Shown: positions 23,399-41,864, numbered from the stretch's first letter. The stretch: 64,000 bases of DNA from an uncultured Acidimicrobiia bacterium (GCA_963786955.1 CAWBAT010000006.1:768001-832000), one strand, 5' to 3'. The notes: generated by a model not told the origin, from the sequence alone. Made by a program: numbers and translations.

Positions 23399-24994
23399 AT
23401 GTTAAATAGATTTTCACTGCCAGCAAAAGTTACTTTGCTTCTTTCATTGGTCGTGTTTGGTGTCGTAATCGCCCTAACCTACTTCATGGCTCAGAGCGCC
23501 AAAAGCGTTATCGAAAGTGATTATCGGAAACGTTCGAATTCAGTGGCAGACCTGCTCGCCGATAAGCTGGATGATCATCCACAACTTCCTCCCAAAGAAG
23601 ATCTCGAAGACCTTGTTTTCGGAGCCAGTGAGAAAAACCTCAGCATTTCAGAGATATCGATATTCATGCATGACGGGAAGAATATTGTCCTGGCAGCAAC
23701 CTCGATCAATGAGGAAAATTCTCCCGTTCCTAATGAAGCCAGTGAAGTGATCCTTGGGGAAAAGAGGATCGACCGGGTGGCCTTTGACGGCAAGGAGAGA
23801 TTCTGCCAGATTGGGGTTCCGATTGTTTACCATAGCCCAAAGGGAAAGCTCGCCCAACGTAGAGTCCTCGGGTGTATTATTGTTTATACCTCGCTGGAAC
23901 AGGCTGACCAGATTATCGCCAAGAACTTCAAAGTGGCTTTTCTGTTCGCTCCCCCTGCTATCCTTATCCTCATTCTGCTGCTTAATGTCCTCTTCCGGTT
24001 CATCATTCATAAGCCTGTCAAAACCATTCAGGAAGCGATGGCCAAAGCAGAAGCTGGCGACTTGATGGCTGATGTGAATCTGAATTCCTCCGACGAACTG
24101 GGGAGGATTGCCGCAAGTTACAACCGGATGCTGCACCAGATTCGCGAAGTCACGACAGAACGAATAAAGCTCATTGAGAAGGTCGGCAATTTCAATATTG
24201 AACTCAAGTCGGAAGTAGCCAGCGCCACGGCTGAATTGAAGAGACGTAACCAGGAACTCCGTGACCTCAATACCCGACTTCTGAAAATGCAGTTGGAATT
24301 GGTCCAACTGGAGCGGCTGGCCGTGGCAGGGCAACTGACAGCAACTTTTGCACATGAAGTCGGAACTCCATTGAACCTGATTTCCGGTCATGTCCAATTG
24401 CTGATCGAATCTTTCAGTGACAATGAATTGATTCGTAGAAAACTATCCTTGGTTCAATCCCAAATCCGACGCCTCAGCGAAATTGTCAGACGCCTGTTAG
24501 ATGCGACCCGGAGGCCCAAACTTGAATTGGCGCCGGTCAACTTAAACGAACTCATCCAAACTGTCGGCGCTTTAATTAGACCGACTCTACAAACGCACAA
24601 TATCCAATACGTGGAAGTCCTGCAGTCGGAATTGCCCTTGATTCAAGCAGACCAAAAGCAATTGGAACAAGTTCTTTTGAACTTCATCAATAACAGTCTC
24701 GACGCCATGCCCAATGGGGGGGAACTGAAGATTGAAACACAGTCGGGACTTGAAAATAAAGTTTATGTCCGGGTAACCGACACCGGAACTGGGATCCTGC
24801 CTGAACACCTTGAAAAACTATTCGAGCCCATGTTTACGACCAAAGAGATCGGGCAAGGGACTGGCCTTGGGTTGAGCATTTCCCGGGATATCATTAAAGA
24901 ACATGGTGGAGAGATTGAAGTTAAAACGGTTTCGGGCGAAGGAGCTACCTTCACCATTCTCTTGTCGGCCGAGGTCCCTGTGTTACAGAGTTAA
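23399..24994 (+). CDS. sensor histidine kinase (periplasmic domain, HAMP, HisKA, HATPase)
   Basis: 2 TM helices, DELGRIA HAMP, FAHEVGTPL H-box, NSLDAM, DTGTGI, FTTK, GTGLGL. Confidence 0.93.
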   Translation: MLNRFSLPAKVTLLLSLVVFGVVIALTYFMAQSAKSVIESDYRKRSNSVADLLADKLDDHPQLPPKEDLEDLVFGASEKNLSISEISIFMHDGKNIVLAATSINEENSPVPNEASEVILGEKRIDRVAFDGKERFCQIGVPIVYHSPKGKLAQRRVLGCIIVYTSLEQADQIIAKNFKVAFLFAPPAILILILLLNVLFRFIIHKPVKTIQEAMAKAEAGDLMADVNLNSSDELGRIAASYNRMLHQIREVTTERIKLIEKVGNFNIELKSEVASATAELKRRNQELRDLNTRLLKMQLELVQLERLAVAGQLTATFAHEVGTPLNLISGHVQLLIESFSDNELIRRKLSLVQSQIRRLSEIVRRLLDATRRPKLELAPVNLNELIQTVGALIRPTLQTHNIQYVEVLQSELPLIQADQKQLEQVLLNFINNSLDAMPNGGELKIETQSGLENKVYVRVTDTGTGILPEHLEKLFEPMFTTKEIGQGTGLGLSISRDIIKEHGGEIEVKTVSGEGATFTILLSAEVPVLQS

Positions 24995-25162
24995 GACCGA
25001 GACATTTCTCTAACTAAGACACATGGGTCGGAACAAGCTGCGGTCTTCAGGGGACCATAAAGATAGCCCGGGGGCTCCGCCAACCTGGACGACTAAACCG
25101 TCTGGCCAATTTACCGCTATGAAAACAGGTCCATACTCCATACGGGATAGACACCTCACCTC

Positions 25163-26521
25163 ATGCAAAAAGTCTTAATCGTTGATGACGACAAACTCAC
25201 TTGCGACTTCATTGCGGAGTTGCTGGACGATTTCAAAGTGGACATATCATCGACGCAAAACCCTGCTGAGGCCATTGAGCTCGGCCAGAAGTCAAAGTTT
25301 GATCTAATCATCAGCGACATCAATCTGCAAAATCGTTTGACAGGACTCGATGTCCTCAAGAGCTTTAGAAAATATCTGCCCGAGTCTGAGGTGATTCTAA
25401 TCAGCGGGTTTGGCACACTGGAAACTGCTATTGAAGCGGTTCGTGAGGGCGCCTTCGACTATATCAGCAAACCTTTTAACATTAACGAAGTCAAAGCCGT
25501 CGTCAAGCGTGCCCTCGAAAAGAAACAGCTGATTAAGGAGAATGAGCAGCTCCGGACCCAGCTCGACAATTTACCACCCTCTGCGACTCTGATTGGCAGT
25601 AGCCCCAAAATGTTAGCCGTCTATAAATCGATCGCCAGCGTCGCGCAGTCAAAGTCGACGGTACTGATTTATGGAGAAAGCGGGACGGGGAAAGAGCTGG
25701 TAGCCCGGCAGGTCCATAATAACAGTTCAAGGAAACAAAGAGGGTTCTTGGCTATCAATTGTGGTGCCCTTTCAGAATCGCTGTTGGAAAGCGAACTTTT
25801 TGGTTACCAGAAAGGAGCATTCACAGGAGCCAATACTGACCGAATTGGCTTATTTGAGGAAGCCGATGGCGGAACACTCTTCCTGGATGAAGTCGGCGAT
25901 ACCACCCCAGCCATGCAAGTAAAATTGTTACGGGCACTCCAGGAACAGGAAATTAAGCGAGTCGGTGGCGTCAAGACGATTAAGGTGGATGTTCGACTCA
26001 TTGCCGCTACTAATCAGAATCTGGAGGACCTTGTCAAGGAAGGTAAATTCCGAGAAGACTTGCTCTATCGGTTGAGCGTGATCACAATCACTGTCCCCCC
26101 TCTGAGAGAGCGCCGAGATGATGTTCCAACTCTCATTTCCCATTTTCTGAGAAAACACAGCCTGGACAAAAGGGCCCAGCCCAGTATCTCGCAGGAAGCC
26201 ATGAATGCATTATCTAGTTACTCGTGGCCAGGAAACGTGCGGGAGCTTGAAAACACGATCGAACGGGTCTGCCAGTTTTCAAAAGGAGGAATCATCACAC
26301 TGGATGACCTCCCGGCAAAGATGAATACCCAGGTTAAATTTCACCAAAGTCATCTTTATGATAACTTGCCCAGCTTGGATGAACTGGAAAAACGCTACCT
26401 GCTCCATATCTTGGAACATACTAAACATAACAAAAGCCATGCTGCTGAAATCCTTGGAATCAACCGAAGGACGCTTTATCGGATGGCCGAACGCTTTGGG
26501 ATTGATTTAAAAGAAGATTGA
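25163..26521 (+). CDS. sigma54-dependent response regulator (NtrC/AtoC family)
   Basis: Receiver, GESGTGKE, ESELFG..KGAFTGA, LFLDEVG, WPGNVREL, Fis-type HTH INRRTLYR. Confidence 0.95.
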   Translation: MQKVLIVDDDKLTCDFIAELLDDFKVDISSTQNPAEAIELGQKSKFDLIISDINLQNRLTGLDVLKSFRKYLPESEVILISGFGTLETAIEAVREGAFDYISKPFNINEVKAVVKRALEKKQLIKENEQLRTQLDNLPPSATLIGSSPKMLAVYKSIASVAQSKSTVLIYGESGTGKELVARQVHNNSSRKQRGFLAINCGALSESLLESELFGYQKGAFTGANTDRIGLFEEADGGTLFLDEVGDTTPAMQVKLLRALQEQEIKRVGGVKTIKVDVRLIAATNQNLEDLVKEGKFREDLLYRLSVITITVPPLRERRDDVPTLISHFLRKHSLDKRAQPSISQEAMNALSSYSWPGNVRELENTIERVCQFSKGGIITLDDLPAKMNTQVKFHQSHLYDNLPSLDELEKRYLLHILEHTKHNKSHAAEILGINRRTLYRMAERFGIDLKED

Positions 26522-26555
26522 AGGACCAAACTGCCCCATAGGACAAATTGCCTCA
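26522..26555. promoter_or_regulatory. putative tandem upstream activator sites for a sigma54 enhancer-binding protein
   Basis: Two abutting 17-mers AGGACCAAACTGCCCCA and TAGGACAAATTGCCTCA (CA-N3-TG dyad), about 160 bp upstream of a sigma54 promoter. Confidence 0.55.
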
Positions 26556-26715
26556 GTTGTTAACTATAAGTAAATAAATGGCTTACTGATGTCGAAATTC
26601 AAAAGAACCGGGCTGCCTCACTTTCTGAAACGAACTTCCTCCCCTTTCCAGATTAGCCAACCGCTAACTTATTCAAATTAATAGACTTATTTGTGATGTG
26701 CCTGCGTGGGTGTCT

Positions 26716-26732
26716 TTGGCCGTTCCCTTGCT
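26716..26732 (+). promoter_or_regulatory. sigma54 (-24/-12) promoter
   Basis: TTGGCCGTTCCCTTGCT with exact GG-N10-GC spacing, upstream of the 26824 ORF. Confidence 0.8.
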
Positions 26733-26823
26733 AATGGTATGTTCATGAAGGATTAAAGATTCCATTCCAAACCCGGCCAATAGGAAACCCCTCGCGGCCG
26801 AACAATTACAAGGAGAAAGTCCC

Positions 26824-27009
26824 ATGAAGAAATTACTATCCTTAATCATCGTTGCCATGATTGCTCTTACCATGAGCTTTGGCACATTCGCATCGGAAGA
26901 GAAGTCCACCGATAAGTCAACAGCCAGCACCAAGAAGTCCAAGAAAGCAAAGAAAACTTCCACAAAGTCGACCGCCGAAAAAGCTCCCGCAGCGGCTCCC
27001 TCCAAGTAA
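26824..27009 (+). CDS. small secreted Lys/Ser/Thr/Ala-rich disordered protein (Asr-like)
   Basis: RBS AAGGAG; signal peptide MKKLLSLIIVAMIALTMSFGTFA; low-complexity basic tail; own promoter and terminator. Confidence 0.8.
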   Translation: MKKLLSLIIVAMIALTMSFGTFASEEKSTDKSTASTKKSKKAKKTSTKSTAEKAPAAAPSK

Positions 27010-27034
27010 CTTTCTGCGGTTTCTGTTGATTCGA

Positions 27035-27080
27035 AAAGCCAGCCTTCCATTTCATCAATGGGAGGCTGGCTTTCTTATTT
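27035..27080 (+). terminator. intrinsic terminator (possibly bidirectional)
   Basis: 17 bp stem AAAGCCAGCCTTCCATT / AATGGGAGGCTGGCTTT followed by CTTATTT. Confidence 0.8.
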
Positions 27081-27240
27081 AAATATGACAGTACTGTTGT
27101 TTTCACTCAAATCATTTACCGCAGACCAAGCTTTAATGTGGTCAAGCAGCAAAGTCGATACAAATCCTAGCGCATAAAACCTGTTCGGCCATTCAACTTA
27201 CACCTTTCTGACCCAAACTCCCTCTTGAAAAAATCGGGCA

Positions 27241-28116
27241 CTAATTTTGCTTCGTAATTCCGCATAACCAATCCAGCGCCTCATACAATTTGGCACGAAA
27301 CTCATTGCGCCCGCCGCTGAAGCGATGATTCCGCGCCGAGACAGAATAAAACTTCTTAAATGTTGTGTCTGCCCCGAACAAAGCATGGGCTTTTTCCGCA
27401 GGTAAGTATTCGTCATGGCTTGACTGGATCAAGGCCGTCGGAAGTAAAGCCATCGAAGAAAACAGATCGTAGGTGTCAAAAATGATGTACTGGTGCTTCG
27501 AGGAGCGCTCCAAGATAACAATCTCCCTGTCATGGCGGCGAATGTCCAACTCTTCTTTGTGAGGCAGGCCGATGGCAAGAACCCCAAGCAGCCCTTGCTC
27601 CGAAGACTTATCTGCCCCCACCAAGACACCAAAGGCCGCCCCGCGTGACCAGCCCGAAAGTACTGTCTTTGTGTCTCTCGCTAGATTGAGGTTTTTCTTG
27701 GCCTCTTCGATAATCAGTTGATAATCTTTGATGAGTTCTTCCAAAGTGACCGGCTCCTGGCTGCGGTTTAGAATCTTCATATAGGAGCGAGAGCTAAAAC
27801 CAACTGTCGGATACCCGAACGCTGAAATTTCCTCGAACATCCCGACAGCCTCTCCATACCATCCTCCGTCCCCACTTGCGTACAAAACGAGAACGGGAGG
27901 CACGGCGTGTGTCCCTAAATCGCTCAAATAAAGCTCCAGCGGTTGCCCATGGAGAACGACCTTGCTCACGAAGGGTTTTATCTCTCGTTCATAAGCATTT
28001 ACTTCCATTCGCAGCCAGAAAATAACTGCGAGGTTCAGACAGATGGTCAGCAGCGTCTTCCGAATGATGACTCGAACTAAAACATATGGCATCAATTCAT
28101 CTTCTCTAAAGGCCAA
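27241..28116 (-). CDS. acvB: AcvB/VirJ family aminoacyl-phosphatidylglycerol hydrolase
   Basis: LYASGDGGW, VGFSSRSY, GWSRGA nucleophile elbow, NHRFSG; start may be 28092. Confidence 0.75.
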   Translation of the reverse strand: MAFREDELMPYVLVRVIIRKTLLTICLNLAVIFWLRMEVNAYEREIKPFVSKVVLHGQPLELYLSDLGTHAVPPVLVLYASGDGGWYGEAVGMFEEISAFGYPTVGFSSRSYMKILNRSQEPVTLEELIKDYQLIIEEAKKNLNLARDTKTVLSGWSRGAAFGVLVGADKSSEQGLLGVLAIGLPHKEELDIRRHDREIVILERSSKHQYIIFDTYDLFSSMALLPTALIQSSHDEYLPAEKAHALFGADTTFKKFYSVSARNHRFSGGRNEFRAKLYEALDWLCGITKQN

Positions 28117-28196
28117 GATGTATCATGGATTTGCGGAGAAAGTTTTTCTTCTGCAGGGGGTCCGAGGCATCCCGATTCGTGATCCGCATCCCCTTC

Positions 28197-29093
28197 TCAT
28201 CGTTTCACGCTTTTGATCCATGACAATGCTTCCAAAATGGAATTATTCAGCCCCACATGATTGTCACTGAAGCGGTGATTGGCAGCCTCGACAACCCACA
28301 TTCTTTTGGGCTCTTTGGCCAGGGCAAACAGCACCTTTGCCTTTTCCAAGGATAGGAATTCATCATGAGTGGAATGGATCTCGGCTAAAGGGACAGGGCT
28401 AATCTGCTGGATGATATCTTCAACCATAAAGCTGGGTTCATCAGGAGTCTTCTTGGTGATCCAGATTGTAAAGTCCTGCCATTTCCATCCCAGCTCATTC
28501 TGATCAGGCAAACCCAAGCCAAGGATTCCCGCAATGCCATCCCTGACCAAAGAGTCTGTAGCCGCTAGAACAGAGAGTCCTGCCCCCTCGGAAACTCCGC
28601 TCAAAATGGGTTTCACGGGGGAGAAGCGTTTCGCATAGTGGATCAGCTCTACATAATCCCTCGGCACGTCCTGAGGCGTCAAAGTACCAGTTCTCGTAGT
28701 AAAACTACTCAGGTAGGCCCGGCTATTGAACCCGATCACTTGATATCCGTTCCTCGAATAAAATTCGGCGACATGGGTCACGAGACCTGCCCAGCCAAGA
28801 TCTCCACTGGAAAGAATGATGGCCGGGTTTCCTTGCTTCCCGTATATAGAGAGTTCCTGGGCTTTTCCTCGAAGCATAATATTGACTAGTGATTGCCCTT
28901 GAAGCGGTTCCGCTAATAAGATCAAGAAAAGCACTATGGGACTGAGCCCGATCAATCGGGATTTTCTGGGCCCACCGGAACGGAACCGGCATGGAAGTTG
29001 CATCTGTCTTCCTGGAATAACAATTCCTCGCCGGATAAATGACCCAAAGCTCTCCTCATTGGCGAGAGTCACTTGTATTGAGGATATGGTCAA
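28197..29093 (-). CDS. acvB: AcvB/VirJ family hydrolase (second copy)
   Basis: SSGDLGW, IGFNSRAY, GVSEGA, NHRFSD; signal-like hydrophobic segment; start uncertain (29093 or 29003). Confidence 0.72.
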   Translation of the reverse strand: MTISSIQVTLANEESFGSFIRRGIVIPGRQMQLPCRFRSGGPRKSRLIGLSPIVLFLILLAEPLQGQSLVNIMLRGKAQELSIYGKQGNPAIILSSGDLGWAGLVTHVAEFYSRNGYQVIGFNSRAYLSSFTTRTGTLTPQDVPRDYVELIHYAKRFSPVKPILSGVSEGAGLSVLAATDSLVRDGIAGILGLGLPDQNELGWKWQDFTIWITKKTPDEPSFMVEDIIQQISPVPLAEIHSTHDEFLSLEKAKVLFALAKEPKRMWVVEAANHRFSDNHVGLNNSILEALSWIKSVKR

Positions 29094-29109
29094 GCAGGCC
29101 TCTCCTTTA

Positions 29110-31309
29110 TCACTTCATTAACAGTTTTAACAATCCGCCGGAAACATGAATCGCCGTCATGGCGTATGCGACTCGAGGCAAGTCTGCTCCTTTAGGATAA
29201 ACCAGATAGCGGCCTTCCCAACGAGGAGCGAATTTTTTCTTGAATTGGAAGAGGTTCTTATACCCGTAGAATGCATTCAAGTTTTCAAAAAGAAGCTCAA
29301 CACCACGCTCCAAGGTATCTGTAGGCCCTATCACATTGGCAAGAGGGGCATTGGCTAAGCTTGCCTCCGTACGACCCGAAGCCTTGAGCAGGAGCAGCGA
29401 ATGGGCCAGGAGAAAATCCATCGTCCCCGCAGCTGCGGTCTTACGCTTCCTCATAATATCCAATACTACCGCCTCTCCTCGACGGTAGGGCAACCAGGTA
29501 CAGAAGGCATCAATTTTCTCATTTTGCCCACAGATAAAGACCTGAAGCTCATTCAGCGCCTCGAGCGAGAAGCGCCCCAAGGTGAAACTCATTTCACCCA
29601 ATTTTTTTTCTCTCAGCCATTCCTGAGAAATATCTTCCAGCTGTTCGTCGAGCACAGCATCCGCATGGCACTTCCGCTCATACAGTCGAACCTCTGCTCC
29701 GGTTTTCGCTACTTTATTGACATGGGCTCGCAAATTTGCCCGCGCCCCGCCAGCCAAGCTAAATCCAGGAAGATCAATTAATGCCTCTTCGGCAATTTTC
29801 AATGATCGAAGTCCCACAGAATGATAGGCGGCGAGTCTGGATTCTGCAGCCTCATAAATGCAGGGGGTCCAGCCGTTCTTCCGGCAATATGTGAGAAATT
29901 CTTCAACGGCGCGGACAAATTCAACTTGCGGAGCCATTGGATCTCCACAAGCGATTGCAACTCCTTTTTGAGTCGCGTATGCCACCATCGCACTTCCACC
30001 GGCAATCAAAAGATGATTCTTGTCTGTCTGAATGGCAAAGGCAGAAAGAGATTGAACACCGTTCTGATCGAATATCTGTCGAATCTTATCCGGGGGGGCT
30101 TCCTGCCGATTACGCAGGATCACTGGCCGGAGCAGCATCACCAACAAATAAAAACGCGCAATCCAACCAGTGATTTCGAGAGAATTAAGGAATAGCAAGG
30201 CATGGGGAGTCTTGGGTATGAGCTTAAGTCCAGCGATGAGGATGCCGGCATCGAATGCTTGGTTCAGGGGGGTGGCGCCAGGAAGCCATTCAAACTTTTG
30301 ATAAAGATGCTGCAATCCTATGAACCCATACAAAAGCACAACCAGAGTCAGTAGGGGAAGCAGCAGCAGTGCTCTTCTCGCTGACACGGGGTCACTTCGT
30401 GCATAGAAGCGCCGTCTAAAATAAATCAAATAGCTTAACAACAAACCTGCGACGAGGGAATTGTGCAGATTCAATCCGCGGGTAATATGGAGCAAAAAGG
30501 ACACCGAAAGAGAGATGGTCGCCACATACCAGGCCAGCTCTTTCTCCTGGCCAGATTCCGTGTCACCTGCAGAAGAGCGACCCCTGCGAAAAGCATGAGC
30601 GGTCGGCTGTGCTGAGTGACTTCCAGGGGAAGCCAGCTCTCGACTGCTGCCATAGAATGCTGAGAGCGAGGCCAGATGGCTGAGACCAGATTGAGAAGTC
30701 CCATCACCCCCATTGCAAAAGGAGCCAGCAAGTGCAGATCGGCAGCTCGAAGATCCTCAACCCACTCCGCTCGCTTCAAGTGACGAATGAGCAGAACCGA
30801 TAGGGCTCCGATCAGGAACGTGAAAACGATCCAGAGCTCGTAGCGGTATGCCTCTGCAAGCAAGAGCTCTGCAGCGTGTCCGAAATAGAAGCCCAAGAGG
30901 GCTGTGGGGACTGCCCAGATTATGCTGGCGAGCAAGTTAATCAGGCAGAACTGAACTGGCGCCATGCCCAAGGCGCCGCAAGCGGCAGGAATGATGATCC
31001 TGAACCCAAAGGCGAAACGACTGGCCAGGAGGAGCCAATACGCATACCGCGACATCAGGCTCAGACAACGGTGATAGTGCGGGTTCTGCTGGAAGCGACG
31101 ATCCAGCCACTTTCGACCGCGAACTCGAGCAATCGCAAAATAAATCTGGTCCGCCGCGGAGTTGGAGAGGACTGCTGTCAGAATGACCAGCCCGAGGCGG
31201 AATACCCCCGATGCGCCAAGTAGGAACCGGCAAGCAGAAAGGCTTCTCCCTCGATGGCAACGCCGAAGAAGAGAATCAGGTAACCATACTTTAACAGGAG
31301 AAATTCCAT
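29110..31309 (-). CDS. mprF: DedA (VTT) domain fused to an MprF-like aminoacyl-PG synthase (TM + DUF2156); 2 single-base frameshifts
   Basis: KYGYLILFFGVAIEGE, ADQIYF, SRFAFGFRI (DedA); AIACGDP, KIAEEA, FTLGRF, VLDIMR, GTMDFL, YGYKNLFQFKKKFAPRWEGRYL (synthase). Adding 1 nt near 31201 and 1 nt near 30542 gives one ORF of about 733 aa. Confidence 0.8.
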
Positions 31310-31355
31310 AGGCTTGGACGAATCGAGATGATGCGCTCGCGCAGATCTGTAAGTT

Positions 31356-32314
31356 CTAATCAACCAAGAACGCTAGCACCGTTTGATCGTCCCTCCAATC
31401 ATTCACGCCAATGGGTCCAACCCCTATTCACCAATTTTAATATGATTCACAAATCCCCTGTGGATTTTGATCCTGAGACTTTCTTAGGATTGCTCCTCGC
31501 AGGAATTCTGGCAAGGAATCGGCTTCTATCGGGAGAACTTCACCGATCCCGTCGGTAAAGAGGACACCCAGAGCCCCGCCTTCGAAAGACAATGTGCATT
31601 TTTGATAATCGCTGTTTGGGAACATACCGGGCAGGGGTGCCGCCGCGATCGAGAAGATGATCGCCGTCGTGGCTAAAGACAATTCCAGGGGGGTGACCGG
31701 CATTGACATAGGTCAATGATTTTTCTCGAGAATTAATGACCCCTAGGGTACAAGTCAGATAAACAACCCCCTGATGTTCGGCATAGAAGGCTGAGGAGAT
31801 CTTGCCTAATAGATCTGAAGGATCGTGGGTCTCTCTCGAAACATTCGGAAAAGGGTTCGTATCGAAGTCAGCGTTAACGCTGCCGGTATGCCTTTGCCTG
31901 AGATGTCTGCGTCAGCACGAGATAGGTGTTCGGATCGAGCGATATGAAGTCATAGAAATCTCCCCCAATCTTTCCGGCGGGTTTGAGGACTGCTCCCCAG
32001 CGAATCTCGTTAGTGCGAGATGGTATCTCCGGCAGTAGATTCCTTTGAATATCGGCGGCTACAGATAGTTCTGTCTCGATAGCAATCTGTTTTCTTTCGG
32101 CTTCAATCAGACTCAGTCGGGTAGCCTTTAAGTTCATCCAGACGAATGTGATAACACCCAGGAGTAGTGATAACACGACATCACTTATCCAGGTTAGCTC
32201 GATCAAACTCGGATGAAAGGCCTGGATAAATGAACGTTCAATCGCGTTTGCCCCGACGTAGGCAACCAGAACCGTCGCGAGAGAGATCAGAAGTTCTGGG
32301 TACCGATTCTTCAT
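31356..32314 (-). pseudogene. membrane PP2C/SpoIIE (RsbU-like) phosphatase with several frameshifts
   Basis: 2 TM; ELSVAADIQ.LLP, GGDFYDF, ADISGKGIPAA, YVNAGHPP, LFTDGIGE and DDQTVL spread over shifting frames. Confidence 0.8.
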
Positions 32315-32357
32315 AACGGAACGTACCCTGCATTGAGCAAGGATGAATCGGGGTGGC

Positions 32358-35300: not shown

Positions 35301-35465
35301 CCCCGGATAGAGGGTGATCACAACGGCCTGAGTATCGGAAATGTCCGGGTAAGCCTCGATCTTAAGTTGAAGATAGGCCCATATTCCCAAGCCTATGAGC
35401 GCTAACCCCATCAATAGGGCCAAGAATCTTTGACGTAATGCAATCCGCAAGAGCTTAGCAATCAT
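32358..35465 (-). CDS. czcA: CusA/CzcA family heavy-metal-type RND efflux permease
   Basis: IEAYPDIS, YDRTELV, ANLLSLGALDFGIIVDG, TEFLPQLDEG, WGGQFEN, GSDVQRPLATVVVGG; 1035 aa. Confidence 0.92.
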   Translation of the reverse strand: MIAKLLRIALRQRFLALLMGLALIGLGIWAYLQLKIEAYPDISDTQAVVITLYPGHAAEEVEQQITIPIERALNNTPNVIARRSRTIFGLSVVELTFSYGTDDYFARQVTLERLRDADLPDGVTPTLGPLSTPIGELYRYSLEGDNADAMQLRELQDWVIAPRFLQVSGVADVAPFGGLIKQYQIEIDPLALSKYDLSISQIAQAVNSNNQNAGGAMLDNRQQAMVIRGVGLLQSVSDIESIVITESKGVPVFVRDVGRVKIGAAIPTGIFGLNNKSNGVEGIVLMRRGENPSEVLNGIHEATEELNSTRLPAGIRIVPIYDRTELVSNTLHTVSHTLLEGLVIVIAILFLFLGSVRAALLTALTIPLSLLFAFVCMHFSGIPANLLSLGALDFGIIVDGTLVMVEHIVHRLSENQSQERRGRIIDTIRDAALEVERPIFFSLLIIIAAYIPLFTLERVERRLFTPMAFTVCFALLGSMLMALTLIPVLATYLFRNGVKTWENPVVTWLYKVYQVVLNRTISRSRLVVASSMGIVLFAFLLGSFLGTEFLPQLDEGVIWIRANLTPGISLVKSAEVANRVRGLVRQSPEVKMVSSQSGRNDSGTDPYGPNRNEIFVPLNPYESWKPGMNKAALVEELAAKLRDEVPGASFSFTQPIIDNVTEAVTGSPADLAVIIAGPDLKVLRQIAQDSLMLLEKVPGSADAAIEQESDQAQLRIQINRQEVARYGINVRDVQDVIELAIGGRAVTTLFEGERRFEITVRYPPEARADSNAIGNILIPTREGGRVPLFQLAEIKVAAGASIIARRENKRMISVRTNIRGRDQGSFVAEAQKKFRSTIKLPQGYRVEWGGQFENLQRARNRLAIILPITIAIIFALLFFTFGSAGHAGLVLMNVPFSLVGGIVFLYLRNINLSVSAAVGFISLFGVAVMSGVLMVSEINRFRRRAGDISVEQAVIQGACAQMRPVLMMIVVALLGMVPAARATGIGSDVQRPLATVVVGGLLSTLLLTLLALPSLYYLLASRRRSKLEQNTRRLE

Positions 35466-35505: not shown

Positions 35506-35820
35506 TTAAGTGAGGACTTCAACATCCAGCATTACCATGAGGCTGTCCCCCACCATGCCTCTGATCTCTCCAAGAAAGGGACGTAATTTGGCCTCTTCTT
35601 CGACGACACTGATGGTAACCGGGCGATCATCCGAAATCCCAAAGAGCCGCTTGTGGTGAACCCTTTGCTGGAACCCATAGCCCATAATCCCCCGATGTAC
35701 AGTGGCACCTGAAATGCCGTGCTGGAGGAGGCGACGGACAATCGCCTCATAGACGGGTAAGTCCTCCCACACATCGGTTTCATCCAAATAAATGAGGAGG
35801 AGCTTGACGTTTTGAATCAT
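35506..35820 (-). CDS. DUF190 (PII-like fold) protein
   Basis: LLIYLDETD, YEAIV, GISGATVHRGIMGYG, SDDRPV. Confidence 0.88.
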   Translation of the reverse strand: MIQNVKLLLIYLDETDVWEDLPVYEAIVRRLLQHGISGATVHRGIMGYGFQQRVHHKRLFGISDDRPVTISVVEEEAKLRPFLGEIRGMVGDSLMVMLDVEVLT

Positions 35821-35858
35821 ATTTTAGAGACTCCTTTTCCCTGCTGGCCAGGAAATGC

Positions 35859-37016
35859 CTACTGACTCTTGAGGAGCATCACACCATCGACAACGATTCG
35901 AACTCCGGGCTTCAGTCCGCTGATTACCGGAAGCTTCTCCCCTTCCCTTTTTCCTAACGTCACCGTGGTTTGCCGGAAGCGGCCAGGACCTTCTTCCACA
36001 TAAATGATCGATTGTCCGTCCCCCTGGACTACCGCCCCCATGGGAACCACAGGGACTTTTCGATAATCCTCACTATGACGTATCTGGGCAAACATCTCGG
36101 GGCGAAATCGACCGTGAAAGTTATCTAATTCCGCTCGTACCTTGACAGTTCGGGTTTGTGGGTCCACGGTATCGGCAATACGGGTTACTCTCCCGGGGAA
36201 TTTTTCATCGGGAAAAGCAAGCAGTGTTATTTCTACTTTCTCGCCCACATCGATGAAGCGAATATAACTCTCCGGCACATCTGAAGAGACCCAAAGAGTG
36301 CCGAAATCGGCTACTGTCATGACTGGAGTGGTCGTGTCGTTTCGGTATTCCCCCGGAACAATGCTCGTTTCCAGAATTTTTCCACCAATCGGAGAACGAA
36401 CAACAACCTTTTGCCCAAAACTTCCCGGCTTCAAGCCTAGAATTTCCAGCCTGCGCTGAGCCTGTTCTTTCACTGCATGAGCCTGCTCAACTGCCGCTTT
36501 GGCTTGTACCAAGGAATTTTCAGCACTTAAGACTTCCTTCTTGGCAATGGCATTGTGCTCATAAAGGTCGGTGGCTCGATCAAAATCAGCCTGAGATTTC
36601 ACGAGGCTTGATTTGGATTGCGTTAAGCTTGCATCCGCCTGCAAATAAATTGCCTCGGCTGCATCCGCATCGGGACTTTCCACAGTTAATAAAGCTTGAC
36701 CCGACGAAACACTGTCACCAATTTTTACCGAAACAGAAGTAATCCTCCCGGTAACGGGCAGTACAATTCGGGAGACTCGATTGGGATTGACCTCTAGTTT
36801 TCCGGGTGAAATCACTTCATTCGCAGGCAGGTCGGCGCTCTCCACTGTTTCGATCCGGATGCTGGCTAACTTAGGGGAGTCCGGGGAGATGACCACGAGC
36901 CCTGGGGTTGCCAAAGATGGAGGAGGAGAAGAGACGGTGCTCGGCTCTTTTCCTGCTGAACAGGCGCCCAGTAACAGCAGAGTGGTCCAAACTATGAGGT
37001 AATGGATTCTTTTCAC
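35859..37016 (-). CDS. RND efflux membrane fusion protein (CzcB-like lipoprotein)
   Basis: Lipobox LLGA-C, VTGRI, VRSPIGG, VDPQTRTVKVR, FRPEMFA. Confidence 0.92.
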   Translation of the reverse strand: MKRIHYLIVWTTLLLLGACSAGKEPSTVSSPPPSLATPGLVVISPDSPKLASIRIETVESADLPANEVISPGKLEVNPNRVSRIVLPVTGRITSVSVKIGDSVSSGQALLTVESPDADAAEAIYLQADASLTQSKSSLVKSQADFDRATDLYEHNAIAKKEVLSAENSLVQAKAAVEQAHAVKEQAQRRLEILGLKPGSFGQKVVVRSPIGGKILETSIVPGEYRNDTTTPVMTVADFGTLWVSSDVPESYIRFIDVGEKVEITLLAFPDEKFPGRVTRIADTVDPQTRTVKVRAELDNFHGRFRPEMFAQIRHSEDYRKVPVVPMGAVVQGDGQSIIYVEEGPGRFRQTTVTLGKREGEKLPVISGLKPGVRIVVDGVMLLKSQ

Positions 37017-38290
37017 GGGGTGACGGCCTTTCCTGAAATGGAGTCTGTCAGGTACAAGCTGCGAGCAAACTCAGCCCGCGCTTCGTTATAACTCTGCATC
37101 GTGTCATTAAATGCCCGCTGGGCGTCGAGGAACTCCACCAAGCTGGCCTCCCCCCGGCGGTAGGAATATTCCATGGTCTGGCGGACATCGCGGGCCTGTT
37201 GGAGCATGTTCGTTTCAATCCCTTTGAGTAAATCCCGGGCCGTCTCAAATCGCAGGTAGGCATTTTCCACCTCGATCTGGATGGCTGCCTTGAAGGTTTG
37301 AATGCGGGCCTCGATCTGGCGCTGCTCTTGACGCGCACGTTCAATTTCCCCTTGATTGCGGTTAAACACAGGAATGGGTGTACTGAAGAAAAACCCCATC
37401 GCATTGGCAGCGGGAACGGCATTCCCATATTGGCGGTGATATTCAGTGCCGACCGTATAGTCCACTTTCCCCTGAGCCATTTGTAATTTCACATCCGCTG
37501 CGGATCGAGACTCGTCCCGTGTCAAAGCTTGAAGGTCGGGGCGCAATTGGAAAGCTTCCTGGCGAATGGATTCCATATCCGCGGGGAGATCATCCCGTCG
37601 AAAATCTCCGGCAATTTCAAAATCAGGCTGAGGTACAGCCCGGCCCATCAGAGACTGAAGACGGTTTCGAGCCATGCGCAAGTTGGCTTCCTGTTGCCGA
37701 ACCGCGTTTTGAAACTGCAGCGCGGCCAGCTTGGATCGAACCAGCTCAACTTCCGCGAGATCTCCAGCTTTGACTTTAGCGGTGTTGATCGCCACGATTT
37801 CGTCAAAAGCCTTCAGGTTTTCTGCAGCCAAAGCCAGATTTGCCTTTGTCAATAGGAGCTCCGCAATCGCGTTCTGCACATCGAGAATCAAAAGCCGGGT
37901 CGCGTTCAGCAATTGCAGTTCGGCCACCGCCTTGGCATTGTCGGCAACTTCCATCCGGTGTTGCCGCTTGCCGCCTCGTTCCAAAAGAAAATCGACCCGG
38001 AAATTCACCTCAGGAGGACCCGCATTCCAATTGAGGTTATTTGCAAACCCGCTTCCCAGGATGTCTTGATAATCAGCGTCAGCCGTGAAAACCGGATTTG
38101 GGCGAAGGCGCGCGGTAATTCGGCGTGCGTCAGCGATACTCAAGTTGTAGCGTTCGGCCATTAGACTTAGATTCTTTTCGACCGCCTCCCGTGTCACTTG
38201 TCCAATGGTCCAGGGCGCTTCTTGACGTCCCTGAGCGAAAAGAGTAGAGGAACAGAAGAGGATCAAAAGAATTCCGAAATACATGCGCAT
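37013..38290 (-). CDS. TolC/CzcC family outer membrane factor
   Basis: Signal peptide, LRPNP, ERGGKRQHR, RPDL, PVFNRNQG, YRRGEASLVEFLDAQR. Confidence 0.92.
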   Translation of the reverse strand: MRMYFGILLILFCSSTLFAQGRQEAPWTIGQVTREAVEKNLSLMAERYNLSIADARRITARLRPNPVFTADADYQDILGSGFANNLNWNAGPPEVNFRVDFLLERGGKRQHRMEVADNAKAVAELQLLNATRLLILDVQNAIAELLLTKANLALAAENLKAFDEIVAINTAKVKAGDLAEVELVRSKLAALQFQNAVRQQEANLRMARNRLQSLMGRAVPQPDFEIAGDFRRDDLPADMESIRQEAFQLRPDLQALTRDESRSAADVKLQMAQGKVDYTVGTEYHRQYGNAVPAANAMGFFFSTPIPVFNRNQGEIERARQEQRQIEARIQTFKAAIQIEVENAYLRFETARDLLKGIETNMLQQARDVRQTMEYSYRRGEASLVEFLDAQRAFNDTMQSYNEARAEFARSLYLTDSISGKAVTP

Positions 38291-38345
38291 CCACTAGACC
38301 CCCAATAAACAATGCACTATTGTGACCAGTTATCGATTTAGCACT

Positions 38346-38362
38346 TGCTCAAGAATCGCCAA
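38346..38362 (-). promoter_or_regulatory. possible secondary sigma54 promoter upstream of the TolC gene
   Basis: TTGGCGATTCTTGAGCA: GG-N10-GC, but with a weak -12 element (GAGC). Confidence 0.3.
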
Positions 38363-38444
38363 CCTCGTTCCAAAAGATATGAAAAAACAGAAGGAAGATC
38401 GCACGGCATTTCACTCCACCACCTTGGCACCTAAAGGTCCAGGG

Positions 38445-38615
38445 TTACTGAAGCCGTCCATCATGATCCCCTTCCTTTTCAGTGAGTCCCCTCTTGAAAG
38501 AAGAAATCCCTTCACCCAGTGATTTCCCGATTGAAGGGAGCTTTTTCGGGCCGAGAATGATCAAAGCGATGACTAAAATGATGACGAGTTCAGGCACTCC
38601 AATTTGACCCAGCAA
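38445..38615 (-). CDS. tatA: twin-arginine translocase TatA/TatE subunit (solo copy)
   Basis: GQIGVPELVIILVIALIILGPKKLPSIGKSLGEGISSFK; TTG start at 38615 after RBS GAGGAGG. Confidence 0.9.
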   Translation of the reverse strand: MLGQIGVPELVIILVIALIILGPKKLPSIGKSLGEGISSFKRGLTEKEGDHDGRLQ

Positions 38616-38686
38616 TCTTTTTTCCTCCTCTCTAATTCGGTGCTCGACGAACCAGCCGAGTGAAAGGTTTCCCGAGAGCAACTCAG

Positions 38687-38703
38687 AGCAAAAGACTCTC
38701 CAA
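38687..38703 (-). promoter_or_regulatory. sigma54 (-24/-12) promoter for the tatA-RND-MprF operon
   Basis: Minus strand TTGGAGAGTCTTTTGCT (GG-N10-GC); IHF-like TAAACAATTGCTT at 38744-38756. Confidence 0.65.
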
Positions 38704-38790
38704 TCCTCTCGGATATTTCTTAACCCCTTATTTGTCTTACCTTAAGCAATTGTTTATTGGTTTTCTGGTTGGTTCGGAAGGCTTTTATGA

Positions 38791-38826
38791 TGGGGCAAGA
38801 ATGCGTCGGGAATCAAAAGTGTCACA
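38791..38826. promoter_or_regulatory. putative tandem upstream activator sites
   Basis: TGGGGCA...TGTCACA half-sites resembling TGCCCCA/TGCCTCA at 26522-26555, about 90 bp upstream of the sigma54 site. Confidence 0.45.
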
Positions 38827-38895
38827 GTATTTATCAACTACCGTCGCAGACTTATTCAAGGGATAGCACAAGAACGCAATGCTCATAGTAGATAA

Positions 38896-40266
38896 CTATT
38901 CACGATGAATCCCATGGCGCTCTAAAATGCGATAAAGAGTACGCCGATCGATATCCAAGACTTCCGCTGCCCTGGTCATGTTTTGACCTGTTGCCGCAAG
39001 GACCTCCATGACATATTCTTTTTCCTTCTCGGCGAGCGTCATTAAAGAGTTGGAAGACATCGAACTTTGATGCAAGGTATCCTGAGGCCAACGGATCTCT
39101 TCAGGGAAGTCTTCGGGAGTGAGGACGCCACTGGAATTGAGCGCGATGGCGCGCTCCACTGCATTTTCCAATTCACGCACATTCCCTGGCCACGAGTAAT
39201 GACTCAGCATCGAATATACCGAGTCATGAATCGCGATGGTCCTGGACGAAGCTTCTGCGTGTCGCCTCACAAAATAGTCCAGTAATAGAGGAATGTCCCC
39301 ACGTCTTTCACGCAGAGGCGGAAGATCAATAGTGACAACCTTAAGCCGGTAGTAGAGGTCTTCGCGGAACTCATGAGAACGCACCATATTCTCAATTGGT
39401 CGGTTCGTTGCGGCAATAATGCGAACGTCCACTTTTGTGGTATTGGTGGACCCTACTCTCATAACTTCTCGTTCTTCCAAGACCCGAAGTAACTTCATCT
39501 GCAACCCCGGGGTCGGGTCCGAGATCTCATCGAGAAAACATGTCCCCTCTTGAGCGGCTTCAAATAATCCGACCTTGGTGCTTGAGGCGCCGGTAAATGC
39601 GCCTTTTTCATGTCCAAATAATTCGCTTTCCAGCAGGGATTCGGTAAGCGCTCCACAATTGATCGCTTTAAAGGGGCCAGTTCGTCGAGGGCTTGTCTTG
39701 TGGATGAGTCGGGCTACTCGTTCCTTCCCAGTACCGCTTTCGCCCTGGATCAAAACAGTTGTTTGCAAAGGCGCAACGCGAGCAATGAGTTTATAGACTT
39801 CGACCATTTCAGGGCTATGGCCAATAATTTCAGATTCAGGAGCAGAGCTTTGTACAACGGATTGGAGTCGCTGAATCTCTCGGCAAAGCCTGACTTGTTC
39901 CAACGCCCGTTTTGCCAGCACGCGAAGGTGATCTAGCTTAAAAGGTTTACTCAAGTAATCATATGCCCCCTTATGAATGGCATCGATGGCCGTCTCCATT
40001 GAGGCGAACCCGGTCATGACAATCACCGGGATATCCTTCTGGGTTGAGCGGACAACCTCCAGCACCTTCATTCCGTCCAACTCGCGCATTCTCAAATCAG
40101 TCAAAATCAGGTCCAGTTCCTGCGAAGACAAGATTTCGAGGGCTTGTTTGCCGCTCATCGCGCGATGGACTTGATAGCCTTCGTGCTCCAACACTTCCGA
40201 TAGGGAATCAAGGGCCGAACGATCGTCATCGACAACCAAAACTCTCGGGATAGCTTTCTCAGTCAT
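38896..40266 (-). CDS. sigma54-dependent response regulator (paralog of 25163..26521)
   Basis: Receiver, GESGTGKE, GHEKGAFTGA, WPGNVREL, HTH IDRRTLYR. Confidence 0.95.
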   Translation of the reverse strand: MTEKAIPRVLVVDDDRSALDSLSEVLEHEGYQVHRAMSGKQALEILSSQELDLILTDLRMRELDGMKVLEVVRSTQKDIPVIVMTGFASMETAIDAIHKGAYDYLSKPFKLDHLRVLAKRALEQVRLCREIQRLQSVVQSSAPESEIIGHSPEMVEVYKLIARVAPLQTTVLIQGESGTGKERVARLIHKTSPRRTGPFKAINCGALTESLLESELFGHEKGAFTGASSTKVGLFEAAQEGTCFLDEISDPTPGLQMKLLRVLEEREVMRVGSTNTTKVDVRIIAATNRPIENMVRSHEFREDLYYRLKVVTIDLPPLRERRGDIPLLLDYFVRRHAEASSRTIAIHDSVYSMLSHYSWPGNVRELENAVERAIALNSSGVLTPEDFPEEIRWPQDTLHQSSMSSNSLMTLAEKEKEYVMEVLAATGQNMTRAAEVLDIDRRTLYRILERHGIHRE

Positions 40267-41864
40267 TTCGGCCCCACCTCATGACGTTCAGATTCGACGC
40301 CTAATTTCCTGGGGACTTTAGCCGGAATCAAAGGGAGGATGATGGTAAAAGAGGCCCCCTGCCCCTCCTCACTTTGGATGGAAATGCTCCCTTGATGGTG
40401 TGCAACAATTTCTTTGCACAAAGCTAGTCCAAGTCCTGTTCCCCTCTCAAACTCCTTTGTTGTAAAGAATGGTTCAAAAATCTCTGCCTGGCGATCCTGC
40501 GGGATACCCACCCCGCTGTCGCTGACTTCCACCTGTACGAAGTCCGAAAGAGTCTGGAAATTTTCAATCCGTTTGAGCTGGACGCGGATCTTTCCCTGGT
40601 CCTGGACAGCTTCCACGGAGTTGTTCAAGAGATTAAGAAAGAGTTGCTGGAGTTGATCTACATTACCCGAAATCCAAAAGACATCCTCATGGCTGGTCAG
40701 AGTAAATTGGACACGCCTGGATTCAAACGTCGGCCCCAACAATTGGCTGATTTTGCATACAATCTCCACGAGTTCGACAGGTTCTAATTGAGTGGCGGGT
40801 CGTGTTGTATTCAAAAGGTTCTCTACAATGCCGCAAACCCGGTCAATTTGCTCGCCGGCAAGACATAATCTCTCACGAATCCTGGGATCCAACCCTCTAT
40901 CTTCCAACATCATTTGCAAATGAGTTGAGATTGCGCTTAAGGGAGATCCGATCTCATGAGCAAAGGTTGCCGTGAGTTGCCCAGCAAGTGCCAATCGTTC
41001 GGCTTGGGTCAACTTCCTTTGAGTCTCCAGGAGTTGGAGGTTGAGCTTCTTCAGATCCTTGTTCCTGGTTCTCAGTTGGCTCGTTGCGGCATCGACTCGC
41101 AATTGTAGCTCTTCATGGTACTTTTGAACTTCTTCCAAGAGAAAATTAAAGCCCCGCCCTAATTCTCCCAGTTCTCCAGTCAATTTCTCTGAAGCTCGCG
41201 CCATCTTTTCGCCTTCCCTGAATCGATGCATGACATCGAGTAGATGCTTGACCGTTCGGTAAACCGTATTTCGAAAGAGCCACCCAACGGCAAAAACCAT
41301 CAAACCAACGGTTACAACAAGCGAATAGATCCGGATTCGGCCCTGGGTAGACAGAATTTGATCCACCGTTTGGAGGGAACTGACTACGCTCACAATTCCT
41401 CGAGTCCCATCATAGAAGTAAATGGGGCTGACCGAAAATACTTGACGCGTTCCTCCTTCTTGAACGATGAACGTTTTCGCCTTTTGGGCATAAAAAGCTC
41501 TAGTCTCTTCTCCTTCGAGAACCCGGTCGCCACGGAAAGAACTGGAATCCAGGTTTTTCAATTCACCCTTAATCTCCGCGTAGAGGTCTACTCGGACAAT
41601 GTTGGGTTCCAATTCCAGGATCTCTCGGACAAGGGTCTTATAGGGTTGTGGTACATCGGAGGCACTGGAATGCGATAGGCTGTGAGCTAGGCGCTGCGCG
41701 GCATTCGATGTTTGAACGCCAATCGTTCCTTCGACAGCATTCACTGCCGTTCGTGTCGTGACCCAATTGGCAATAACCAGGACCGAAGCGGACAAGAGTA
41801 TGGTCGAAACATGAATGCGCCTTTGCAATGACCATTGACTGACTGGGGAAAACCATCGGCTCAT
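40263..41864 (-). CDS. sensor histidine kinase with HAMP (paralog of 23399..24994)
   Basis: 2 TM, GELGELG HAMP, ERLALAGQLTATFAHEIGSPL, DSGVGI, FFTTK, GTGLGL. Confidence 0.93.
   Translation of the reverse strand: MSRWFSPVSQWSLQRRIHVSTILLSASVLVIANWVTTRTAVNAVEGTIGVQTSNAAQRLAHSLSHSSASDVPQPYKTLVREILELEPNIVRVDLYAEIKGELKNLDSSSFRGDRVLEGEETRAFYAQKAKTFIVQEGGTRQVFSVSPIYFYDGTRGIVSVVSSLQTVDQILSTQGRIRIYSLVVTVGLMVFAVGWLFRNTVYRTVKHLLDVMHRFREGEKMARASEKLTGELGELGRGFNFLLEEVQKYHEELQLRVDAATSQLRTRNKDLKKLNLQLLETQRKLTQAERLALAGQLTATFAHEIGSPLSAISTHLQMMLEDRGLDPRIRERLCLAGEQIDRVCGIVENLLNTTRPATQLEPVELVEIVCKISQLLGPTFESRRVQFTLTSHEDVFWISGNVDQLQQLFLNLLNNSVEAVQDQGKIRVQLKRIENFQTLSDFVQVEVSDSGVGIPQDRQAEIFEPFFTTKEFERGTGLGLALCKEIVAHHQGSISIQSEEGQGASFTIILPLIPAKVPRKLGVESERHEVGPK

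Follow-up and report, generated by a model that had tools for sequence, protein, structure and literature searches.

Two paralogous sigma-54 two-component systems beside a Lys-rich peptide, a Czc-type efflux pump and lipid-charge genes in an Acidobacteriota genome

Acidobacteriota are an abundant, mostly uncultured soil phylum. Here we describe a locus at which two paralogous sigma-54 two-component systems face each other, between positions 23,399 and 41,864 of a 64,000-nucleotide stretch of DNA (GCA_963786955.1, CAWBAT010000006.1:768001-832000), referred to below as the window and numbered from its first letter. The window (G000:C6:768001-832000) belongs to a 9-contig assembly of 5.65 Mb that is 93% complete (G000). 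Gene identities were taken from Pfam and NCBIfam scans of the window proteins, and 40 genomes of relatives were searched (41 with G000 counted in), of which G001 and G002 share one genus with G000 (g1), inside a wider group, family f1, that holds both systems. An initial annotation had read the locus as a single coordinated, mirror-image island directed at acid and cationic envelope stress, and the comparative analysis below leads to a different arrangement of the same parts.

The left arm lies on the plus strand and begins with HK1 (23399-24994), a membrane histidine kinase (HK) with two transmembrane (TM) segments, a periplasmic domain, and HAMP, HisKA and HATPase_c domains, followed by RR1 (25163-26521), an NtrC-type sigma-54 activator or response regulator (RR) with a receiver, an AAA+ domain carrying GAFTGA and a Fis-type helix-turn-helix (HTH). 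Behind this pair, referred to as system 1, come three TGCCNCA sites of conserved spacing (26532-26538, 26549-26555 and 26614-26620), which we presume to bind RR1, a sigma-54 promoter-like GG-N10-GC element (TGGCCGTTCCCTTGCT, 26717-26732) 92 nt 5' of the next start codon, and the gene for a 61-residue secreted, Lys-rich, low-complexity peptide with a Sec-type signal (26824-27009). An intrinsic terminator hairpin with a 17-bp stem (27035-27073) closes the arm, in agreement with the terminator proposed near 27035.

The right arm lies on the minus strand. Its membrane histidine kinase, HK2 (40263-41864), has a predicted Cache/PDC periplasmic domain and is preceded by a sigma-54 promoter-like element (TGGAATCTATCTTGCA, 42071-42056) conserved in G001 and G002, with a composite site TGTGGCA-N22-TGCCCCA (42157-42192) 121 nt 5' of it. 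RR2 (38896-40266), an NtrC-type activator with GAFTGA, completes system 2, and is followed by a composite site TGTGACA-N22-TGCCCCA (38791-38826), presumed to bind RR2 and situated 124 nt 5' of another GG-N10-GC element (TGGAGAGTCTTTTGCT, 38702-38687). The first gene 3' of this promoter is tatA2 (38445-38615), encoding a 56-residue TatA/E-family paralogue; then come an outer-membrane factor (OMF; 37013-38290) whose best NCBIfam match is IhpA, a divalent metal exporter subunit, a CzcB/NccB-type periplasmic adaptor (MFP; 35859-37016), a DUF190 (PII-like) protein (35506-35820; Pfam 101.7 bits) between the MFP and RND genes, a CusA/CzcA-family heavy-metal-efflux RND pump (HME-RND; 32358-35465), a membrane-anchored PP2C/SpoIIE phosphatase (about 31437-32443) whose start overlaps the end of the RND gene, a DedA-MprF fusion (29110-31309), and two AcvB/VirJ-like alpha/beta hydrolases, AcvB1 with a single catalytic domain (28197-29093) and AcvB2 (27241-28116). 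This is the gene order that had been proposed, and the Pfam and NCBIfam scans bear it out.

The two regulator pairs are related. HK1 and HK2 share 35% identity across their C-terminal 378 residues, both contain the H-box strings picked out earlier, and their N-terminal sensor regions gave no BLASTP alignment with each other; RR1 and RR2 are 48% identical, each has PF00072, PF00158 and PF02954 (HTH_8) above the cut-offs, and GAFTGA is visible in their alignment. Within G000 the activators are mutual best paralogues, narrowly (450 vs 403 bits among ~22 such activators), as are the kinases (216-232 vs 153-172 bits). The coordinates, H-boxes, GAFTGA motifs and paralogy thus agree with the earlier description of facing HAMP kinase and activator pairs, except that the HAMP match of HK2 stays under the Pfam cut-off (16.8 vs 25 bits). 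The genome carries rpoN (DNA-binding domain, 194 bits). The best NCBIfam matches of RR1 are AtoC, NtrC and ZraR, none above its own cut-off, and scores of the two pairs against the ZraSR and AtoSC equivalog models fall short of the thresholds (AtoC 455-488 vs 714, ZraR 401-418 vs 760, AtoS 227-232 vs 646, ZraS 155-169 vs 479). Orthologues of HK1, at 53-89% identity, occur in 9/40 relatives and those of HK2 in 6/40. The sensor of HK1 is conserved in the orthologue alignment, and a structure model of the HK2 periplasmic domain predicts a single Cache/PDC fold (predicted local distance difference test, pLDDT, 88.5), for which a fold search returned WalK, the sCache domain of a formate chemoreceptor, CitA and DcuS as best matches. 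The signal would be sensed in the periplasm, by a domain of this predicted Cache/PDC type.

The loose GG-N10-GC pattern has 8 matches in the window where 5.2 would be expected, a number equalled or exceeded in 18 of 100 shuffles, so this count was dropped as evidence, and we rely instead on position, conservation and linked upstream sites, which exceed chance. By these measures both promoters stand where the initial annotation had put them, and comparison with relatives recovered conserved upstream sites followed by a sigma-54 promoter after each regulator gene. In the left arm, exactly one TGG-N9-TGC lies in the RR1-peptide spacer of 10/10 loci (the window and nine relatives), 68-102 nt 5' of the start codon, and three TGYCNCA sites with fixed spacing (17 nt, ~65 nt, and ~103 nt to the promoter) are present in 7/10 HK1-RR1 loci. 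In the right arm, the RR2-tatA spacer aligns in the three genomes of the genus, with a conserved block TGTG(A/G)C...GCATT..TGCCCCA, and the GG and TTGC positions of the -24/-12 element 5' of tatA are kept in G001 and G002. The same block, together with a further -24/-12 element, stands 5' of HK2 in all three genomes; this third promoter-like element (42071-42056) was absent from the earlier reading.

Across the 5.65-Mb genome, the composite TGTGRC-N18-28-TGCCNCA with a TGG-N9-TGCW element within 330 nt occurs exactly twice (14 times when the promoter condition is lifted), and both copies are those of the right arm, 5' of HK2 and 5' of tatA. These are the only two such composites in the genome and are conserved across the genus, which argues well for a single regulator, most simply RR2, that acts on both its own operon and the tatA operon, and points to autoregulation of HK2-RR2 together with control of the tatA/Czc-type pump operon. 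The genome-wide scan did not find this composite at the peptide promoter, and the layout of the sites differs between the arms: the left has three direct sites, the right two inverted ones spaced by 22 nt. When TTGCCNCA was sought more loosely across the genome, together with two or more half-sites no further than 260 nt from TGG-N9-TGCW, 15 matches came up, 5 of them non-coding; the three non-coding matches outside the window (C4:795536, C4:795727 and C9:106514) were dropped, having no peptide, tatA or lipid genes downstream.

In the left-arm peptide it is composition that is kept. The tail in the window (~37 residues) has a net charge of +7, with 30% Lys and no Arg, and a homologous peptide is present in 10/10 HK1-RR1 loci, with tails that diverge freely but stay at 27-44% Lys, lack Arg and carry a net charge of +6 to +8. 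Neither Pfam nor NCBIfam gave a family match, Asr included, at E<=0.01 (for Pfam also at E<=1), so that the earlier label 'Asr-like' describes a likeness of composition only and was given up. A tatA gene directly follows the peptide gene in 7/10 HK1-RR1 loci. In five genomes from other families, HK1/RR1 homologues of 35-53% identity have no peptide or tatA downstream, and the cassette was therefore not traced outside f1 by that route. System 2 also has small secreted outputs elsewhere: in G006 a sigma-54 promoter and then a Lys-rich peptide follow RR2, and in G012 the output is a small secreted protein with sub-threshold likeness to DUF5666. Small secreted beta-rich proteins recur as sigma-54-driven outputs beside related HK-RR pairs (L021, 4467-4805(-); L018, 9939-10376(-); L081/L101, ~16130-16560(+)), with only sub-threshold CusF_Ec or DUF5666 Pfam matches (L018, L021). 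In G002 (L014, 6390-17570), an intact 401-residue SpoIIE/PP2C gene and an MFP-RND-RND-OMF set come after the peptide gene on its own strand; both arms there accordingly pair a PP2C with an RND pump.

The first gene of the right-arm operon, tatA2, scores above the cut-offs of TatA_B_E (58.6 vs 21 bits) and TIGR01411 (59.1 vs 53.9), and is only 52% identical to the other tatA of G000, on contig C5. Placed side by side, its sequence is visibly like that of the tatA following the peptide in other genera, so a regulated TatA paralogue would belong to system 1 elsewhere and to system 2 in this genus. TatC (PF00902) was not found in the G000 assembly despite its two tatA genes; since TatC is present in 39/41 genomes searched and G000 is 93% complete, its absence is most simply an assembly gap, and tatA2 without TatC was rejected as a sign of a non-Tat role. 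Heavy-metal RND pumps carry a charged TM4 motif, D-x5-D-x6-E. The RND protein of the window, an intact 1035 residues, has the motif DFGIIVDGTLVMVEH in its translation and scores 1036.7 against a cut-off of 701 bits for TIGR00914; the other right-arm genes besides PP2C and DedA-MprF are also intact.

Gaps along the arm are mostly short: 154 nt between tatA and OMF, an overlap of OMF and MFP, 38 and 40 nt flanking DUF190, an overlap of RND and PP2C, and 16 nt between MprF and AcvB1. The tatA-OMF gap holds no hairpin or attenuator beyond shuffles (z 0.06), and no further sigma-54-like site was found in a non-coding stretch between 27241 and 38300 on the right-arm strand. This spacing is compatible with one long operon from tatA to AcvB2, in which read-through would carry transcription to the lipid genes. 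A paralogous cluster in G001 (C31; L034, 5200-14250) has a sigma-54 HK-RR pair divergent from OMF-MFP-RND-DUF190, with RND and DUF190 66% and 50% identical to those of the window and DUF190 placed after the RND gene; G000 yielded no equivalent, its next-best RND being 43% identical.

The lipid-charge genes lie at the far end of the arm. DedA-MprF, the sole MprF in the G000 genome, has the LPG synthase domain at its C-terminus (PF09924, 236 bits), and a DedA/VTT domain replaces the flippase N-terminus (PF09335, 50 bits in the intact 734-residue G006 orthologue); NF033480, the profile with the MprF flippase domain, is matched at 302 vs 600 bits and only over profile positions 393-837. The PP2C fragment at 31437-31709 exceeds the SpoIIE cut-off (26.9 vs 25 bits), and the other fragments align to the G006 PP2C. 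The identities first assigned to these two genes were right, but both are frameshifted in this assembly: DedA-MprF is spread over three frames, with breaks near 31205-31220 and 30537-30552, and PP2C over at least three frames, with at least three frameshifts. As to the two hydrolases, AcvB1 exceeds the VirJ cut-off (32.9 vs 22 bits), whereas AcvB2 falls just under it (21.0); AcvB2 is 32% identical to AcvB1 in a three-way alignment and keeps SGDGGW, GWSRGA and NHRFS. GxSxGA and NHRFS are invariant in three AcvB-like paralogues and the orthologues aligned. AcvB1 matches the solved AcvB structure 9xhm weakly (E 0.008), with the serine of GVSEGA falling on that of GYSFGA. In AcvB, catalysis has been assigned to Ser336 and His433 (PMC13197417); by a residue-offset estimate the aligned serine of AcvB1 would be Ser336, and the NHRFS histidine may be equivalent to the catalytic His. 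The two-domain architecture of AcvB was not found, the hydrolases here having 291 and 298 residues; only the C-domain aligns usefully (13.8 bits, against 2.3 for the N-domain).

Comparison with the relatives separates the two arms. In G002 the peptide gene is separated from AcvB2 by ~21 kb, and the arms are ~37 kb apart; the insert contains the intact PP2C, MFP, two RND and OMF genes, DAHP synthase, a PAS kinase, a GGDEF regulator and unknowns, and no orthologues of its genes were found in G000. A stretch of ~200 bp that includes the terminator hairpin flanks the insert on both sides as a direct repeat and occurs once in the window, and a deletion between such repeats in this lineage probably created the face-to-face position; environmental contigs that end loosely at 27073 and 27227 fit a variable junction. 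In G001 the order GSDH-HK2-RR2-tatA-OMF-MFP (GSDH, a glucose/sorbosone dehydrogenase-like gene) runs up to a contig end, and no HK1 or DedA-MprF was found in that genome. In G003, G008 and G012, the genomes outside the genus with both kinases, HK1 and HK2 are on different contigs. Judged from these relatives, the face-to-face placement is an apparent accident of this species' genome and not a functional unit, and with the composite site confined to the right arm the notion of a single coordinated mirror-image island has been abandoned.

What does recur is the association of this regulator family with the lipid-charge module. A scan with an alignment of three fusions yielded 46 DedA-MprF/MprF loci, nearly all from Acidobacteriota, Terriglobia and Vicinamibacteria; they were found via two peptide patterns only and are related, not independent. 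With neighbours counted in flanks of at most 10 kb a side, and 26/46 loci being 20 kb or longer, an AcvB-like gene lies near DedA-MprF in 34/46 loci (25/26 long loci), a full-length sigma-54 response regulator in 15/46 (13/26), that regulator together with a related kinase in 11/46 (9/26), and PP2C in 6/46 (6/26). An HME-RND above 500 bits was seen in 2/46 loci (2/26 of the long ones), and DUF190 and tatA each in 1/46 (1/26), namely G002. As a chance level, ~8% of 22-kb windows would hold such an activator (~22 in 5.65 Mb), a rough estimate for related loci and not a formal test. In G006 the order is PP2C (on the opposite strand), BON, DedA-MprF, AcvB, a CusF-like gene, HK2, RR2, sigma-54 promoter and Lys-rich peptide, with sigma-54-like elements 5' of the CusF-like gene and 5' of the peptide. 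Loci of high GC content match the loose promoter pattern too often for it to be of use, and a non-coding filter gave nothing in 12/13 loci, so we cite only three near-consensus sites, read by eye: those of L081, L101 and L082, which point toward a small secreted protein or an AcvB-like gene, with a TGTGGC...TGCC-type site upstream in L081 and L082, also by eye. The tie of the regulator family to the lipid-charge module is wider than this locus, recurring in several lineages and gene orders; of the co-occurrence that had been anticipated this part held, but the two arms and the pump are not jointly kept, and RND, DUF190 and tatA are joined to this regulator only in this genus.

We favour, with somewhat more confidence than doubt, a model of two separate, paralogous sigma-54 two-component systems that manage envelope charge under cationic stress. 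Each would be a cassette of kinase gene, activator gene, activator-binding sites, sigma-54 promoter and output genes, and both would belong to a family common in one Acidobacteriota family. HK1/RR1 would turn on the secreted, strongly cationic, disordered Lys-rich peptide, from a promoter that in most other genera may also serve the TatA-family paralogue. HK2/RR2 would activate its own operon via the promoter 5' of HK2 and, via a second promoter, the TatA paralogue, the Czc-type metal-cation efflux pump and the DUF190 protein, with presumed read-through into PP2C, DedA-MprF, an aminoacyl-phosphatidylglycerol (aminoacyl-PG) synthase/flippase, and the two AcvB-like hydrolases, which would take the aminoacyl group off again. 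Together, these outputs would add or manage positive charge at the envelope and expel cations, and the role would most likely be envelope-charge homeostasis in the face of cationic stress, whether from metal cations, from cationic peptides or perhaps from low pH. Of the earlier interpretation, it is this theme of positive surface charge and cation handling that was kept, as it fits all outputs; it is plausible, and the recurring gene neighbourhoods lend it independent support. The analysis shows the gene identities, the conservation of promoters and sites and the synteny counts. Who binds which sites, how far the operon extends, what the signal is and what physiological role follows are matters that we infer from the patterns described.

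Several observations weigh against this model. The pump is tied to the regulator family only in g1 and in the paralogous G001 cluster, and in G003 and G012 the HK2-RR2 orthologues adjoin VWA and sortase genes rather than lipid genes. In the window, transcription from the tatA promoter would have to run on for more than 7 kb and cross a gap of 128 nt to reach DedA-MprF; with a sigma-54-like element within 350 nt upstream in only 3/30 DedA-MprF genes, direct sigma-54 control of the synthase gene is not general. The fold of the HK2 sensor is generic and points to no ligand, and binding of RR1 and RR2 to their sites is presumed from conservation. The half-site TGCCNCA is common to both arms, so that cross-regulation may occur. 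This last point touches an explanation close to the original one, in which the systems cross-regulate as one regulon, a single acid and cationic envelope-stress island with a functional mirror layout; it would draw further on kinases and regulators that are mutually closest paralogues, on the G006 peptide driven by system 2 itself, and on the TatA paralogue, which stands under system 1 in seven other genomes and under system 2 here and indicates that outputs moved between the two systems. Against this, G002 keeps the arms apart, no HK1 turned up in G001, the kinases are on separate contigs in three other genera, the site layouts differ, the right-arm composite is missing at the peptide promoter, and acid is not singled out by any result, all of which make a single regulon distinctly improbable.

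We also think it unlikely that the right arm is a Czc-type heavy-metal resistance operon under a metal-sensing sigma-54 system, with PP2C, DedA-MprF and AcvB unrelated and expressed from their own promoters. Such an operon would suit an RND above the CusA/CzcA cut-off, the CzcB-type MFP, the OMF nearest IhpA, the sub-threshold CusF-like small proteins that are outputs in G006 and G012, and G001, which has no DedA-MprF that we could find and whose C31 cluster has no lipid genes in the 20 kb examined; the DUF190 gene in the Caulobacter czr cluster (PMC4176598) and CorSR (PMC3707914) are precedents. Related regulators, however, accompany DedA-MprF and AcvB far oftener than HME-RND (15 vs 2 of 46 loci), in G006 HK2/RR2 sit with the lipid module and without a pump, the PP2C gene here begins inside the end of the RND gene, and the HK2 sensor alignment has no conserved His or Cys cluster. 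The frameshifts raise the further prospect that PP2C and DedA-MprF, which could be dead here, are true pseudogenes and the lipid-charge part is decaying: there are at least three breaks in one gene and exactly two in the genome's only MprF, clustered in ~2 kb, with the RND and the other genes of the arm intact. Near-identical public short-read contigs, however, have indels relative to the window at 31344, 31418, 31443 and 31629, one of them (X2 record 12) differing by 2 further letters across its 268 bases, and G002 differs from the window at or within a few bases of the same positions. Both DedA-MprF breaks are one-base shortenings against G002, one of a T run and one of an A run, and G002, a long-contig metagenome-assembled genome (MAG), is itself broken in MFP, OMF, RR2 and HK2, which are intact here. 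These contigs are short, come from public runs with best shares of window words of 0.20, 0.16, 0.14 and 0.10, none reaching half (0.06 for an RNA run, X11), and leave the breaks at 30540 and 31200 uncovered. On the indels and the comparison with G002, the frameshifts are probably long-read consensus errors, and true decay of the two genes seems to us rather unlikely.

A broader proposal may be ventured, which we regard as possible but doubtful: that Acidobacteriota have a dedicated sigma-54 two-component family setting net envelope charge, in which a periplasmic Cache kinase reads a cationic or surface-charge cue and, through its activator, drives a 'cationic shield'. The shield would comprise secreted peptides in which only a net charge of +6 to +8 is conserved, a specialised TatA-like protein of the membrane, AcvB and DedA-MprF for the tuning of aminoacyl-PG, and, in some genera, the pump. 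The Lys-rich peptides would then represent a novel kind of polycationic protectant in the periplasm, or else feed back on the kinase as its ligands, and the task of the TatA paralogue would lie apart from normal Tat export. Aminoacyl-PG is under OmpR-type systems in model organisms, and we know of no such control in Acidobacteriota; among titles and the starts of abstracts, no paper was found that deals with MprF or a TatA paralogue under sigma-54, Acidobacteria included. A regulator family repeatedly beside DedA-MprF, AcvB and PP2C, with recognisable sites and promoters, offers a testable handle on surface-charge tuning and places the lipid transport proposed for DedA domains in a natural context, and it singles out two unexplained conserved outputs, the charge-conserved peptides and the regulated TatA paralogue. 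We consider the apparent phylum-level link of the family to aminoacyl-PG genes, these peptides and the TatA paralogue the most interesting outcome.

The neighbouring genes add some observations of their own. A UPF0182 membrane-protein gene (20552-23278, +) lies directly 5' of HK1 in the window and in 4/9 other HK1 loci (G002, G017, G011 and G012; loci L052, L053, L054 and L014), some of the remaining loci beginning too near HK1 to tell, and its spacer to HK1 in the window has no sigma-54-like element. On the other side, beyond HK2, is GSDH (42587-44800, -), a 737-residue dehydrogenase-like gene. Just 3' of its stop (42587), an open reading frame (42240-42581, -) holds an extra copy of its C-terminal domain, 49% identical to residues 499-617, and is kept in G001 and G002; the region 42240-42617 may belong to a longer gene than called, or be another frameshift split. 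A sigma-54-like element (TGGCTGATCTCTTGCA, 44859-44874, -) lies ~59 nt 5' of the start of GSDH and, having no right-arm composite site upstream, may need another activator. Two MAGs are labelled 'Acidimicrobiia' (L064, which is the G002 contig, and L103), and the genes of L064 are 85-96% identical to those of the Acidobacteriota window, which suggests wrong labels or mixed bins.

Among known systems, ZraPSR of Enterobacteria is a sigma-54-dependent envelope stress system with a periplasmic-sensor kinase, an NtrC-type activator and an adjacent, directly activated small periplasmic output. The window shares with it the membrane kinase with a periplasmic sensor, the NtrC-type activator and an adjacent small secreted output, and its top NCBIfam matches include ZraS and ZraR; the equivalog cut-offs are, however, far from reached, the peptide, which has no family match, is unlike ZraP, Spy or CpxP, the output gene comes 3' of the regulator gene instead of diverging from it, and the sensor is of the predicted Cache/PDC type. 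Asr of E. coli, likewise under the control of an inducing two-component system, is a small, basic periplasmic protein of low complexity that leaves the cytoplasm by the Sec route. The peptide here has no homology to it by the Pfam search above, a ~37-residue tail with Lys as the only basic residue and no His-rich stretches, and predicted sigma-54 control. CzcRS is of the OmpR type, and a sigma-54 two-component system stands in its place here. Like CzcCBA/CzrCBA, the right arm has a CusA/CzcA-family OMF-MFP-RND trio with a DUF190 gene in the cluster (PMC4176598), but DUF190 is here between MFP and RND and the operon is led by a tatA paralogue. CorSR of Myxococcus xanthus, a periplasmic-sensor HAMP kinase with a sigma-54 activator, controls a copper-tolerance cluster via several sigma-54 promoters (PMC3707914), as such a kinase and activator would control a metal-tolerance cluster here; its target is the copper cluster (curA operon), whereas here a Czc-type RND and a lipid module are concerned, and the likeness is one of architecture.

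The closest counterpart of the lipid module is LpiA/MprF-AcvB of Agrobacterium and Rhizobium, where an aminoacyl-PG synthase gene is likewise followed by one for a periplasmic VirJ-family hydrolase (PMC13197417, PMC13135905) and the lpiA-acvB operon controls lysyl-phosphatidylglycerol levels (PMC13197417). The nucleophile serine motif of AcvB1 aligns with that of AcvB, and the NHRFS histidine motif is conserved here. The synthase of the window differs in that DedA replaces the MprF flippase domain, the module forms the tail of a presumed efflux operon governed by a sigma-54 system, and two single-domain hydrolases of ~290 residues, of marginal similarity (E 0.008), stand in for one two-domain AcvB of 456 residues. 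DedA-MprF fusions were noted by Roney and Rudner (2023) as bioinformatic support for lipid transport by DedA proteins, in passages that do not take up the regulation of these fusions (PMC10193950). The fusion described here is of the same make, with a DedA domain swapped for the MprF flippase and joined to the LPG synthase domain (PMC10193950).

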